Of a DNA stretch of 64,000 nucleotides, positions 2,851 through 64,000 are shown one piece after another; within the stretch, counting starts at the first letter, position 1; each line of letters opens with the position of its first letter. The stretch covers positions 43,998 to 107,997 of the forward strand of contig CAWHTP010000007.1 in assembly GCA_963832285.1 (NCBI GenBank). The letters run 5' to 3'. Source of the DNA: an uncultured Cytophagales bacterium. GTDB lineage: Bacteria; Bacteroidota; Bacteroidia; Cytophagales; Cyclobacteriaceae. The translations under genes and the position numbers were made by a program. The notes beneath the pieces are model-generated. The model was not told the origin of the DNA. It did not search any database and worked only from the letters and a program-made list of their open reading frames with translations.

Positions 2851-3419
2851 TAGTCACGTTTTTCCATGCATAATTTTAAGTTGCGCTTTCCATTTTGGAT
2901 GTAACTCTTAACTTTTTTAAGCTCAAAAGAGGTGAGCGCTTCAATTTCCTGATAACTTTTGCTATCCAAGTAAAACAGCGCGACACATTGTTTTTGTTCG
3001 ACTTTTAGCTTTTCTAAACAACTATTAAGTAGTTCAATCTGCTCCTCATCCACAGCGCCTTCCCCTTCATGATGCACATTCACTTCATTTTCCATAAAGT
3101 TTAGGTGGCTTTCTTCCAGTGGGACGCTACCACCGCTTTTCTGCTTTCTGAGCAGCATTAAGCAATAGTTTTTAGTAAGTACGTACAACCAGCTTTTAAA
3201 ATTAGCTATCTCAAATTTAGGGAGTTTCACTATAAGCTCCTCAAAAATAGCCATCACACCATCTTGTGCTTGCGCTCGGTCCTTTAAGTATTTTAAGCAA
3301 ACCCCGTACACCAAGGGCATATAAGGTTCATAAAGCAAACCTAATGTAGTTAAATCGCCATGCTCCCGGTAACTTTTAACTAGATCAGCATCTTTTGATA
3401 TATCTTTTGTGGTGCGCAC
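2850..3419 (-). CDS. RNA polymerase ECF-type sigma-70 factor
   Basis: 189 aa with region-2-like YEPYMPLVYGVCLKYL and region-4-like YQEIEALTSFELKKVKSYIQNGKRNLK. Apparent GTG start. Confidence 0.8.
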   Translation of the reverse strand: MRTTKDISKDADLVKSYREHGDLTTLGLLYEPYMPLVYGVCLKYLKDRAQAQDGVMAIFEELIVKLPKFEIANFKSWLYVLTKNYCLMLLRKQKSGGSVPLEESHLNFMENEVNVHHEGEGAVDEEQIELLNSCLEKLKVEQKQCVALFYLDSKSYQEIEALTSFELKKVKSYIQNGKRNLKLCMEKRD

Positions 3420-61059: not shown

Positions 61060-61700
61060 TTACAAGTTAAAGATTAGACTTTGTAGTAAATTAGCTTCTA
61101 AGCTTGTTGCTTGTTCCTTATTGCATTGCTTTAATCCAAATAGTTTATAACAAATGAGCCAACTCCTCTTTTCACTTGTTTTTTTCATCTCATGATGTAT
61201 AAGCCAAAACGTGAATAAATTCATGCAAAGGAACGAGTAAAAATGCAATGGCTAATACATAAAAAGTACGTATAATACCTTCTCCAAATGGTAGTTCATA
61301 ATTTTTATGTACAATAAATAGCGGATAGTTTGGATATGTCAAATTCAAGTTTCTATATTTGAGCATCATATCGGAAGTATCCGATTTATACAGAAGAGGT
61401 AAGAGATCAGGCTCTATGATCCTCTGGCAACCGCCAAAAAATGCGCAACGCATAAGGAAAGGTGCCAATTCCTGCCCAATGAAGGGACATATAAAACGGC
61501 AATGCTATGAAAAATCAAATAAAACACATTCGCACAACACAGCAATCAGAAAACTCTTTTCTTGTTGTCTCAATTCCTTGTAATCCTACAGTTCGCATGG
61601 CCGGCACTATTGCTTGTTGCAACTGCTGTTGTTGATTTTCATTAAATCATTCTCCCACAAGGCTCACTTCAATGTAGAGAAGCGTTGAATAGCCAGTCAT
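61060..61700 (-). pseudogene. possible degraded membrane metallopeptidase-like gene (HExxH), broken across at least three frames
   Basis: The minus-strand pieces are FFIALPFYMSLHWAGIGTF.., then ..IIRTFYVLAIAFLLVPLHEFIHVLAYTS*, then ..WLICYKLFGLKQ.. They lie in different frames and are separated by stops. The family guess (DUF3267-like) is weak. Confidence 0.3.
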
Positions 61701-61811
61701 AATTTTTTGATTGTCTTCAGGAGAACATCACAACATAATCTACTCATACTTACGAAAACCCCTTCTTTAAAAAAAGAAGATTCCAATTACAGAAAAGCAT
61801 ATCTATATAAA

Positions 61812-62984
61812 ATGTCGCAACATTTCGAAACACAAGCCATAAGAACACAAGCCGCTAAAAGCGGTAACAGAGAGCATTCGGTGCCGCTTTATCTTACATC
61901 TTCCTTCACTTTTGAAAATGCTGAGCAAGCTAAAGCATTGTTTAACGATGAAGAGGAAGGGAACATTTATTCACGCTTTTCTAATCCTAACAGCTCAGAG
62001 TTGATTGACAAGATTGCCCTGCTGGAAGGCGTAGAAGATGGTATTGCAACTGCCACCGGCATGGCAGCCATGTTTGGAAGTATGGCTGCACTTTTACGGC
62101 AGGGGGATCATATTTTGGCAGCCCGTTCTTTATTTGGCTCCACGCATCAGCTACTAACGCAGATTTTTCCACGCTGGGGCATCACACATACTTATGCGGA
62201 TATTAGCAGGACGCATGAATGGGAAAGCTTGATTAAGCCGGAAACGAAAATGATTTTTGTGGAAACTCCTTCAAACCCAGGGTTAGAAATTATTGACCTA
62301 GAATGGCTAGGGAAGTTGGCAAAAGCGAATAACCTCATTTTAGTGGTTGATAATTGCTTTGCCACACCGTACCTGCAGCAACCCGCAAAATGGGGAGCGC
62401 ATATTGTTACACACAGTGCTACCAAATTTATTGATGGACAAGGAAGAGTTTTGGGCGGCTTGATTATGGGCAGCAAGGAGTTAATTAAAGAGGTACGCTT
62501 TTTTAGCCGACATACAGGACCTGCTATTTCGCCATTTAATGCATGGATGCTATCCAAAAGCCTCGAAACATTGGTAGTTCGTATGGACAGACACTGCGAA
62601 AGTGCATTAAAAATTGCTGAATACCTTGAAGGACATTCAGACCTGGAAAGCGTTAAATATCCATTCCTGAAATCTCATCCGCAGCATGATTTGGCCAAAA
62701 AGCAAATGAAATTGGGCGGTGGCATCCTCACATTTATTGTAAAAGGCGGGGCAGAGAGAGCTAGCAAGTTTATCAATCAGTTGAAGACTATTTCTATCAC
62801 CTCCAATTTGGGCGATACACGGTCAATCGTTACTCATCCGGCCACCACCACGCATAGTAAACTCAGTGCTGAGGAAAGAAAAAATGTAGGAATTGCTGAC
62901 GGATTGATCAGGTTATCTGTAGGGCTAGAGCATATAAACGATATTATTGAAGATGTAGAACAAGCTTTAAAAGCATCGGAATAA
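61812..62984 (+). CDS. PLP-dependent O-succinyl/O-acetylhomoserine sulfhydrylase (MetZ/MetY trans-sulfuration family)
   Basis: MSQHFETQAIRTQ..REHSVPLYLTSSFTF.., GNIYSRFSNPN, and the PLP-lysine motif HSATKFIDGQG. The start was trimmed from 61707. Confidence 0.85.
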   Translation: MSQHFETQAIRTQAAKSGNREHSVPLYLTSSFTFENAEQAKALFNDEEEGNIYSRFSNPNSSELIDKIALLEGVEDGIATATGMAAMFGSMAALLRQGDHILAARSLFGSTHQLLTQIFPRWGITHTYADISRTHEWESLIKPETKMIFVETPSNPGLEIIDLEWLGKLAKANNLILVVDNCFATPYLQQPAKWGAHIVTHSATKFIDGQGRVLGGLIMGSKELIKEVRFFSRHTGPAISPFNAWMLSKSLETLVVRMDRHCESALKIAEYLEGHSDLESVKYPFLKSHPQHDLAKKQMKLGGGILTFIVKGGAERASKFINQLKTISITSNLGDTRSIVTHPATTTHSKLSAEERKNVGIADGLIRLSVGLEHINDIIEDVEQALKASE

Positions 62985-63053
62985 ATGAGATTTTATATAA
63001 AAATAATGTGCAATTGTATGCTTTGTTGTAAGGCCCCACCGGACGCTGCCTGA
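62985..63053 (+). CDS. candidate Cys-rich leader peptide MRFYIKIMCNCMLCCKAPPDAA
   Basis: The ATG directly abuts the upstream TAA (TAAATG). Codons 9-15 are TGC AAT TGT ATG CTT TGT TGT. The stop is TGA 63051..63053, 23 nt before the terminator stem. An alternative start is ATG 63006. Confidence 0.4.
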   Translation: MRFYIKIMCNCMLCCKAPPDAA

Positions 63054-63075
63054 TATAACTATACCCCAACTATAG

Positions 63076-63118
63076 TGCCTCTTGCAGAATCCACCATTCC
63101 GTAAGAGGCATTTTTTTT
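63076..63118 (+). terminator. strong intrinsic terminator (possible attenuator) upstream of sulfite reductase
   Basis: 15-position stem TGCCTCTTGCAGAAT / ATTCCGTAAGAGGCA (one A-C mismatch, one G-U pair) with loop CCACC, followed by T8. Confidence 0.75.
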
Positions 63119-63146
63119 ACCTGAACAATTTATAAAGACTACTAAT

Positions 63147-64000
63147 ATGACACAATTAACAGAAGATTTAAAGATAAGCAAGGCAGCTCGCAAAGACATT
63201 GCAGAGTTGGAAAATAAGATAGCGCTTTTCAGAAATGGACAAATAGCCGAGGAGAAATTTAAAGCCTATAGGTTAACTCGCGGGGTATACGGGCAACGGC
63301 AACAAGGTGTGCAGATGTTCCGGTTAAAAATTCCGGCCGGTAGAATTACCACAGATCAACTACGAACAGTTGCGGCATTGTCGGAACAGTACGCCACCGG
63401 TAATTTGCACCTCACTACTAGGCAAAACATTCAATTGCACCACGTAAAACTGGATGATTCACCAGCCATTTGGGCTGCTTTGGAAGCATCGGGCTTAACC
63501 GCCAGAGAGGCTTGTGGAAATACCGTGCGGAATATTACTGCCAGCCACAAGGCTGGCATCGATCCGCATGAGCCCTTTGATGTAACCCCCTATTTGGATG
63601 CGGTGTTCCGTTTTTTCCTTCGAAATCCTATCTGCCAGGAAATGGGTAGGAAGATAAAAATTGCTTTTTCCTCCAGTGAGAAAGATACCGCTTTTGCTTT
63701 TATCCACGACTTCGGGTTTATCCCGATAGCAAGGAAAACCGACAAAGGGGAAGAAAAAGGCTTCCGTGTGTTGGTGGGTGGCGGCTTGGGAGCGCAAACT
63801 ATATTGGCTCAGGAATTTTTCGATTTTCTGCCTGAAGACAGATTAATCAACTTCCTCGAAGCAGCCTTACGGGTATTTGACAGATATGGGGAGCGTGAAA
63901 AACGCATGAAAGCACGCCTTAAATTCTTGATTAAGAATATTGGTTTAGAAGAATTTAGAAGGTTAGTGGAGGAAGAGGAAAAAGTACTGCATCATAAGCC
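63147..64000 (+). CDS. sulfite/nitrite reductase hemoprotein (ferredoxin-type), N-terminal part; continues off the window
   Basis: My own translation gives MTQLTEDL...FKAYRLTRGVYGQRQQGVQMFRLKIPAGRITTDQLRTVAALSEQYATGNLHLTTRQNIQLHHV...REACGNTVRNITAS.., with no stop to the window end. This is why it is absent from the ORF track. Confidence 0.85.
   Translation, partial: MTQLTEDLKISKAARKDIAELENKIALFRNGQIAEEKFKAYRLTRGVYGQRQQGVQMFRLKIPAGRITTDQLRTVAALSEQYATGNLHLTTRQNIQLHHVKLDDSPAIWAALEASGLTAREACGNTVRNITASHKAGIDPHEPFDVTPYLDAVFRFFLRNPICQEMGRKIKIAFSSSEKDTAFAFIHDFGFIPIARKTDKGEEKGFRVLVGGGLGAQTILAQEFFDFLPEDRLINFLEAALRVFDRYGEREKRMKARLKFLIKNIGLEEFRRLVEEEEKVLHHK

Follow-up and report, generated by a model that had tools for sequence, protein, structure and literature searches.

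A candidate cysteine-sensing transcription attenuator between metZ and the sulfite reductase gene in Marivirga and other Bacteroidota

We analysed a 64,000-nucleotide (nt) stretch of DNA from an uncultured Cytophagales bacterium (assembly GCA_963832285.1, contig CAWHTP010000007.1, positions 43,998 to 107,997 of the forward strand), here called the window, in which the spacer between metZ, encoding O-succinylhomoserine sulfhydrylase, and sir, encoding assimilatory sulfite reductase, holds a short open reading frame (ORF) dense in Cys codons, sORF2, and behind it an intrinsic terminator. With a probability that we put at roughly 80%, this element is a ribosome-mediated transcription attenuator that would sense cysteine through charged tRNA-Cys and gate the passage of metZ transcription into sir-cobA. 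A first-pass annotation of the window, made from its letters, had proposed a Cys-sensing leader or attenuator at this place; every sequence-level prediction of that proposal holds, and the comparative evidence supports it. The features by which a leader-peptide attenuator can be recognized in sequence are all present, and from them we infer translation, ribosome stalling, termination and a response to cysteine. Window coordinates given below refer to the + strand.

The 22 codons of sORF2 (62985..63053) encode the peptide MRFYIKIMCNCMLCCKAPPDAA. The start codon stands immediately 3' of the metZ stop in a TAAATG junction, Cys codons begin at 63009, 63015, 63024 and 63027, giving four Cys in seven codons, Met occupies codons 1, 8 and 12, and the TGA stop (63051-63053) is separated by 23 nt from the stem of the terminator. 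The Cys codons, which are codons 9, 11, 14 and 15 (63009..63029), were read from the sequence as the putative regulatory codons, the sites at which a ribosome would stall when cysteine is limiting. Clusters of at least four Cys in seven codons are scarce, with just eight in the six-frame translation of the whole window, two of them being sORF2 itself and sORF1, a second poly-Cys ORF of the metZ-sir operon. From this count the chance of meeting such a cluster in a 160-nt spacer is about 0.01, which matches the order of 1e-2 first estimated.

The intrinsic terminator (63076..63118), detected by a scan for hairpins followed by T-runs and by folding, consists of a stem at 63076-63110 (10 bp, a 1x1 mismatch, 4 bp and a 5-nt loop) and eight T residues (63111-63118). 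Its stem, from 63076/77 to 63109/10, reads TGCCTCTTGC-a-GAAT ccacc ATTC-c-GTAAGAGGCA, with 14 pairs around the 1x1 mismatch and a predicted folding free energy (dG) of -16 to -19 kcal/mol. A strict-stem scan for promoters and terminators missed this + strand terminator owing to the mismatch, which is a limitation of that scan and not evidence of absence. The start codon of sir follows at 63147, with 28 nt between it and the T-run. The letters thus agree with the first-pass description of the site, which had listed the 22-codon ORF after TAAATG with four Cys in seven codons and three Met, the stop 23 nt before a 15-position stem (the 14 pairs plus the mismatch), the T8 run and a sulfite reductase ATG just past it.

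That annotation had seen by eye no convincing competitor of the terminator stem and had proposed the computation of alternative RNA folds as a check. We folded the RNA with ViennaRNA up to just before the 3' arm of the terminator, placing the stalled ribosome so that a Cys codon occupied its A site, and such a competitor appeared: an antiterminator formed by the end of sORF2 and the 5' arm of the terminator. In the minimum-free-energy fold it is a single extended hairpin whose 5' strand (63041..63053) begins at the final nucleotide of codon 19 and ends with the stop codon, with GGA (63041-63043) paired to TCC (63090-63092), CTGC (63046-63049) to GCAG (63084-63087) and GA (63052-63053) to TC (63080-63081). 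Its predicted dG is -15.3 kcal/mol, compared with -6.7 (sd 2.0) for dinucleotide shuffles of the upstream part, none of which was as stable in 1000 trials; the corresponding structure in another Marivirga genome, L004, reaches -18.6, again with 0 of 1000 shuffles as stable. In silico, the antiterminator stays intact with the ribosome stalled at any of the Cys codons, and it is lost (dG -0.9), leaving the terminator arm free, when the segment that a ribosome at the stop codon would cover is masked. The modelled geometry is the classical one of a trp-type attenuator.

At the tip of this hairpin sits an inner helix, P2 (63058..63076), made of ACTATA and TATAGT (63058-63063/63071-63076), which abuts the terminator and is predicted to nucleate the antiterminator. 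It is the hairpin that the first-pass annotation had noticed; it is present as described, and what does not stand is any role as a competitor by itself, since it overlaps the terminator by 1-2 nt at most and as an antiterminator on its own was rejected. Within Marivirga P2 is conserved, and its base changes preserve pairing (an A-U pair becomes G-U, and a flanking U-G pair becomes C-G); a similar hairpin, CTATAC/GTATAG, was found in the Cyclobacteriaceae locus L097 described below. In a further candidate, which was also discarded, TGTTGYAAGGC (spanning the Cys-Cys-Lys-Ala codons) would pair with the 5' arm of the terminator; by eye this requires two bulges, and a ribosome stalled at these codons would cover TGTTGYAAGGC.

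Put together, these parts suggest the following course of events. Ribosomes that terminate on metZ would re-initiate at the abutting ATG of sORF2. When cysteine is plentiful, the ribosome would reach the sORF2 stop and cover about 63036-63065, a stretch that includes the antiterminator 5' strand as well as the 5' arm of P2, so that the terminator at 63076-63110 with its T8 run would form and transcription would stop before sir. When cysteine is scarce, the ribosome would stall with one of the Cys codons 9-15 (63009-63029) in its A site and would leave the RNA free from about 63040 onward. The free RNA would then fold, through the GGA/TCC, CTGC/GCAG and GA/TC pairings around P2, before the 3' arm of the terminator is made; by sequestering 9 nt within the 5' arm and apical region of the terminator, the antiterminator would permit readthrough, and sulfite reduction would rise.

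We then asked of relatives what the first-pass annotation had suggested asking, namely whether the Cys-codon run and the terminator are conserved in the equivalent intergenic region. The comparison covered nine Marivirga genomes, the window and eight others (L001-L007 and L077) obtained from a MetZ protein scan with one genome per species, whose MetZ proteins are 89-93% identical to that of the window. Both elements are conserved in all nine. Each metZ-sir spacer contains a 22-codon ORF with three to five Cys codons. In eight genomes the start of this ORF touches or overlaps the stop codon of metZ (TAAATG or TAATG), and in L077 it lies 15 nt past it. The arms of the terminator are invariant apart from one G-U to G-C change, the loop being variable, and the gap between the T-run and the sir ATG measures 17-29 nt. 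Judged by sequence comparison, the retention of sORF2, of its length and of the terminator in the eight other genomes is beyond chance.

The pattern of substitution within sORF2 is informative as well. In codons 1-12 the variable columns at codon positions 1, 2 and 3 number 6, 9 and 5, and in codons 13-22 they number 2, 0 and 7; the N-terminal half of the peptide varies freely, and the C-terminal half varies almost solely at third codon positions. The tail CCKAPPDAA is invariant across the nine genomes with a single Asp-to-His exception. In the KAPPDAA part of this tail (63030-63050, codons 16-22) the third-position swaps are GCC/GCT, CCA/CCT, CCG/CCT, GAC/GAT and GCC/GCA/GCG. The 2/0/7 pattern looks like the signature of a translated sequence and not of an RNA motif, and together with the open frame and the stop-start junction it makes translation of sORF2 probable.

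Recurrence of the element in independent lineages is the strongest evidence, among what sequence can offer, that it would act as an attenuator. Outside Marivirga we examined 19 sir loci, one (L016) from the MetZ scan and 18 from a metagenome scan and contig look-ups; the scan of metagenomes with a sir alignment provided at least 10 loci, and protein search with contig look-ups provided eight more contexts. Directly upstream of sir, 13 of the 19 have a poly-Cys mini-ORF, a G+C-rich hairpin and a T-run (L016, L081, L082-L084, L086, L089, L090, L092, L093, L094, L097 and L098), L097 being a metagenome-assembled genome (MAG) of the Cyclobacteriaceae and L098 one of the Sphingobacteriaceae, so that by the MAG labels the recurrence spans at least Cytophagales and Sphingobacteriales. 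The other six lack the poly-Cys ORF element (L085, L087, L088, L091, L095 from Lutibacter and L096 from Mucilaginibacter); in L096 a terminator is present, and the leader ORF contains just one Cys. The element lies 3' of metZ in L016, L081, L086, L090 and L097 and stands alone in L082-L084, L089, L092-L094 and L098. Since metZ is not upstream in several of these loci, the element belongs to sir and not to metZ. The leader ORFs of these lineages contain 4-11 Cys and encode unrelated peptides that share the Cys run alone, among them CCKLKNYARIL, CCCPGENYIRKL, CMCQTNYLCP, CCICT, CCCMKQISGSEERF and CCCCG.

The topology of the antiterminator recurs in most of these loci, with the last codons of the ORF, or a segment just past its stop, able to pair with the 5' arm of the terminator. 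Examples are ATCCGCA/TGCGGAT in L081, TCCCGGG/CCCGGGA in L082, GGTCCGC/GCGGACC in L097 and a 13-nt match in L089, each of which a ribosome at the stop codon could mask. Shuffled sequences were as stable as the observed ones in 0 of 500 trials for L097 and for L093, 6 of 500 for L089, 11 of 500 for L082, 21 of 500 for L094, 14 of 1000 for L081 and 25 of 1000 for L086.

Some neighbouring features of these loci deserve mention. In L016, an unrelated Bacteroidota MAG whose layout matches that of the window, the order is a riboswitch for S-adenosylmethionine (SAM), a poly-Cys ORF, a ferredoxin gene, metZ, a poly-Cys ORF encoding MRTAIYIGPICCICMCCKLKNYARIL, a terminator and sir; the ferredoxin-like gene (2970-3320 of that locus, 116 aa, with Cys motifs of the 4Fe-4S type) is located between the SAM riboswitch with its sORF1-type ORF and metZ. 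A gene for an Rrf2-family regulator is found just upstream of the sir leader in L096 (833-1267) and in L098 (839-1291). In L091-L094, which are long contigs, sir is split into two or three called genes (377 + 343 aa, for example), and these splits are probably frameshift errors in long-read assemblies.

Several observations weigh against the attenuator as we propose it. The ribosome footprint used in folding, with the first free nucleotide at A site + 13, was assumed from other bacteria. Within Marivirga the antiterminator shows no double compensatory change, and its changes amount to two that are wobble-compatible (L003, L077) and two single disruptions of GGA/TCC (L006, L007); covariation is uninformative there, the region being about 90% identical and too conserved. 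P2 together with the terminator is more stable at equilibrium (-20.7) than the antiterminator (-15.3), which means that the switch must be kinetic, and the antiterminator takes up just part of the 5' arm of the terminator. Without any ribosome the antiterminator still folds, and the Marivirga version has no element like the 1:2 hairpin of trp, with the consequence that an untranslated leader would read through. Among the other lineages the fold of L016 is weak (109 of 1000 shuffles as stable), and those of L098 (146 of 500) and L092 (364 of 500 and 192 of 500) are unsupported; the leader ORF of L092 looks frameshifted, which may explain its lack of an antiterminator signal. Finally, a simple attenuator model does not account for the conservation of the CCKAPPDAA tail at the level of amino acids.

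This last point opens the way to two other explanations. The first retains attenuation and changes the signal, which would not be, or not be only, the charging of tRNA-Cys: the tail would act as a nascent-peptide or elongation pause, in the manner of TnaC, and readthrough would respond to the speed of translation, to the state of elongation factor P (EF-P) or to a small molecule in the exit tunnel. APPD belongs to the class of proline-proline motifs that require EF-P for their translation, and a Pro-Pro motif is also part of the Cyclobacteriaceae version in L097, CCKGDTGPPGFTIL. In Escherichia coli, termination at intrinsic terminators is known to be altered when a polyproline pause lies upstream of them (PMC5021804). 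We consider this explanation improbable, because most of the other lineages do without a Pro-Pro motif yet always keep the Cys run, and because a pause at Pro-Pro-Asp would leave the antiterminator strand covered by the ribosome and so is better accommodated as a timing role within the cysteine-sensing model.

The second explanation, to which we give still less credence, holds that sORF2 makes a functional small Cys-rich peptide, for instance a metal-binding, sulfur-binding or redox peptide, produced together with MetZ, and that the partial terminator is unrelated to it. What speaks for it is again the tail, kept at the amino-acid level in Marivirga (2/0/7) when a pure codon sensor would not need it. 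Three findings speak for the attenuator instead: outside Marivirga only the Cys run is common to the peptides, the N-terminal half is unconstrained (6/9/5), and the ORF invariably comes with a terminator and sir, with the geometry of stop codon and antiterminator recurring.

A more conventional possibility is that the hairpin is the plain terminator of metZ and the Cys ORF a chance frame, with sir expressed from a promoter of its own or by unregulated leak-through. The hairpin is indeed strong and looks like an ordinary terminator, and a chance of about 0.01 for four Cys in seven codons leaves some room for coincidence. The recognized -7 promoter consensus of Bacteroidota is TAnnTTTG, and all nine Marivirga genomes are free of such a box from the last 150 nt of metZ to the sir ATG; given this and the short gap between T-run and ATG, sir must be transcribed through the hairpin. 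A chance frame, moreover, would not be expected to keep a length of exactly 22 codons, a Cys run and third-position variation in nine genomes, the poly-Cys ORF and terminator precede sir even where metZ is not upstream, and the alternative fold lies far outside what shuffling yields, all of which makes this possibility very unlikely. Equally implausible is that the UGU/UGC-rich stretch is an RNA motif for a protein or small RNA and that the ORF is never translated, an idea allowed by the U/G-rich RNA that poly-Cys codons inevitably produce and by the lack of Shine-Dalgarno sites in Bacteroidota, which makes the start unconfirmable from sequence alone, but opposed by Cys codons that are interspersed with a period of three and exchange TGT and TGC freely, by an ATG and a stop that every lineage keeps in frame and at a constant distance from the terminator, and by the third-position substitutions, which indicate translation.

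The cysteine-sensing attenuator would be embedded in an operon that starts about 1.6 kb upstream of sORF2. A candidate promoter -7 box, TATATTTG (61354..61361), matches the consensus at a conserved position 22 nt upstream of a riboswitch, and in all nine Marivirga genomes a TA(TA/TC)TTTG box (TATATTTG or TATCTTTG) precedes that riboswitch; TAnnTTTG occurs 0.77 times per kb on the + strand of the window, and the argument therefore rests on position and conservation. In L098 the ATG of the poly-Cys ORF lies 9 nt after a TATATTTG box, and that transcript may be near-leaderless. This riboswitch of the Marivirga operon, which it heads, is a full-length SAM-I aptamer (61383..61497; Rfam RF00162, 70 bits with a gathering score of 44.4), which was matched also in L001, L004, L077, L016, L082 and L086.

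Nine nucleotides after the aptamer is the ATG of sORF1 (61507..61635), of 42 codons and ending in IACCNCCC-stop. It is conserved in all nine Marivirga genomes (at about 3196-3357 of each locus in L001-L007 and L077) with 42-43 codons and a poly-Cys run at the stop (IACCNCCC, LCCCICCC or ICCCSNCCC); the frame stays open, and the peptide is otherwise unconstrained, with a divergent N-terminus and no codon-position bias. Analogues are found 3' of the SAM aptamer in L016 (2761-2879, ending ...CCCPCCC), L082 (about 2665-2755, ...CCCCCCK) and L086 (about 1427-1525, ...CCCCCCC), and ORFs of this type begin 2-10 nt past the aptamer, upstream of metZ. In the window, a two-codon mini-ORF, ATG CTA TGA (61502-61510), directly follows the aptamer and overlaps the start of sORF1 out of frame; it is absent from the other Marivirga genomes, which read ACGGTAAAACAATG.

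The scan for hairpins with T-runs found no canonical terminator after sORF1 in Marivirga, only weak and inconsistent hairpins, and one plausible hairpin in L082. A mechanism of the mycobacterial type, in which the poly-Cys tract of sORF1 would sequester the metZ start, was suggested by RNAalifold in four genomes and rejected, as the duplex energies resembled those of random sequence (the fraction of random 40-nt windows of the same loci pairing at least as well was 0.29-0.85). sORF1 may act by a Rho-dependent mechanism like that of tna, or by protection of the leader that depends on its translation. About 33 nt upstream of the metZ ATG there is a small hairpin, CTTCTT/AAGAAG (61762-61779 in the window), with no T-run after it, which is kept in all nine Marivirga genomes with differing sequences, including pairs changed on both sides.

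The flanking genes were assigned as follows. metZ (61812..62984) matches the O-succinylhomoserine sulfhydrylase family NCBIfam NF006003 with 525.5 bits (cutoff 522) and has the probable start MSQHFETQ. sir (63147..64000), assigned by a match to the nitrite/sulfite reductase family, is cut by the end of the window; in relatives it encodes 708 aa and is followed by cobA/cysG, and genes for PAPS reductase and siroheme synthase are found elsewhere in the same clusters as sir. The products of sir-cobA make sulfide and siroheme for cysteine synthesis, which fits the logic of a switch that would sense cysteine.

Among seven Cyclobacteriaceae metZ loci with a SAM-I aptamer and without the poly-Cys ORF, six (L015, L038, L010, L041, L023 and L008, but not L014) have an ATG exactly 8 nt after the SAM-I aptamer; these ATGs open non-conserved ORFs of 33-135 codons, three of which end overlapping the metZ ATG. 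The layout of these loci suggests that their SAM-I riboswitches would control whether a leader ORF is translated, this ORF being coupled to the gene that follows. More tentatively, we entertain a wider picture, doubtful as a whole, in which the operon would be a three-layer RNA sensor of sulfur status, with two features that would reach past classical attenuation. In the first, SAM-I riboswitches of Cytophagales, which lack Shine-Dalgarno sites, may gate a leader ORF whose AUG is fixed 8-10 nt after helix P1; in Marivirga and in several lineages besides, this leader ORF may have gained a second input in the form of poly-Cys at its C-terminus. As to the second, we speculate that the CCKAPPDAA tail is a programmed elongation pause, Pro-Pro-Asp slowing the ribosome over the antiterminator strand; the E. 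coli precedent cited above concerns polyproline pauses that alter termination at intrinsic terminators downstream.

Regulation of sulfate assimilation and cysteine synthesis is poorly known in Bacteroidota, and the element offers a concrete, testable switch for sulfite reductase. If our reading is true, classical ribosome-mediated attenuation works in a phylum without Shine-Dalgarno-led initiation, and a single operon is under two-signal control, by SAM at its 5' end for metZ and by cysteine at its middle for sir-cobA. The gating of leader ORFs, likewise if true, would be a possible SAM-I expression platform for a phylum devoid of Shine-Dalgarno sites. For annotation, the poly-Cys ORFs of 20-45 codons are missed by gene callers or called hypothetical.

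Compared with known systems, the element resembles the classical leader-peptide attenuators found in amino-acid operons of enterobacteria (trpL, hisL, leuL, thrL, pheL and ivbL), with which it shares a short ORF rich in codons for the end product, a stop codon placed so that the terminating ribosome would mask the antiterminator strand, and mutually exclusive antiterminator and terminator structures with a U-run ahead of biosynthetic genes. Here, in contrast, the amino acid sensed would be cysteine, the phylum is Bacteroidota, the element is inside an operon and not at its 5' end, and the start of the ORF abuts the metZ stop; the Marivirga version also shows no trp-like 1:2 anti-antiterminator and no Shine-Dalgarno sequence.

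In mycobacteria, leaderless short ORFs with polycysteine tracts have been found experimentally to respond to cysteine (Canestrari et al. 2020, bioRxiv 10.1101/834739 / Mol Microbiol 114:93). They resemble sORF2 in being tiny ORFs with a Cys run upstream of cysteine and sulfur genes, and there stalled ribosomes relieve repression when cysteine is limiting and several loci share the signal (10.1101/834739). At the mycobacterial locus studied, control is translational, a stalled ribosome opening a duplex that hides the ribosome-binding site (RBS), the ORF is leaderless and there is no intrinsic terminator (10.1101/834739). The output of the Marivirga element, in contrast, would be a strong terminator and an antiterminator, and its ORF is internal to the transcript: the ATG of sORF2 lies about 1.6 kb into it, which is not a leaderless arrangement, and the canonical terminator between sORF2 and sir separates it from RBS unmasking without a terminator.

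A second counterpart, the motif uORFC-8-2 (Brewer et al. 2021, PMC8632094), which precedes cysS in Rhodobacterales, is also a predicted ribosome-mediated attenuator with tandem Cys codons and a U-run terminator. It differs in having two Cys codons only, in preceding the gene for cysteinyl-tRNA synthetase in alphaproteobacteria, in occupying a 5' leader and in being a single sequence-conserved motif (PMC8632094); the elements of Marivirga and of the other lineages share no sequence with it. The candidate Cys leaders of cys and cbs operons in Actinobacteria (Seliverstov et al. 2005, PMC1262725) carry Cys runs near the stop and most resemble sORF1, with poly-Cys at the stop and no canonical terminator after it. 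No terminators were found for those leaders and Rho dependence was proposed (PMC1262725), whereas sORF2 is followed by a canonical terminator.

Rfam scans of 61300-63250, at the gathering threshold and at E<=10, gave only the SAM aptamer and two chance-level matches elsewhere. Our full-text literature searches turned up no description of a cysteine leader, either in Bacteroidota or for sulfite reductase, nor of any RNA-level cysteine sensor in the phylum, in keeping with the first-pass annotation, whose author knew of none in this phylum. The combination at the head of the operon has a parallel of its own. The leader of Salmonella mgtA joins a Mg2+ riboswitch to the proline-rich ORF mgtL, and the SAM-I aptamer with sORF1 is similar in joining a riboswitch to a short ORF that would sense an amino acid; the ligands and the amino acids differ, and here there is a second, intercistronic attenuator candidate besides. 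What is distinctive in the Marivirga operon is the amino acid that would be sensed, the phylum, and the position of the element within an operon that is also headed by a SAM riboswitch and a second poly-Cys ORF.

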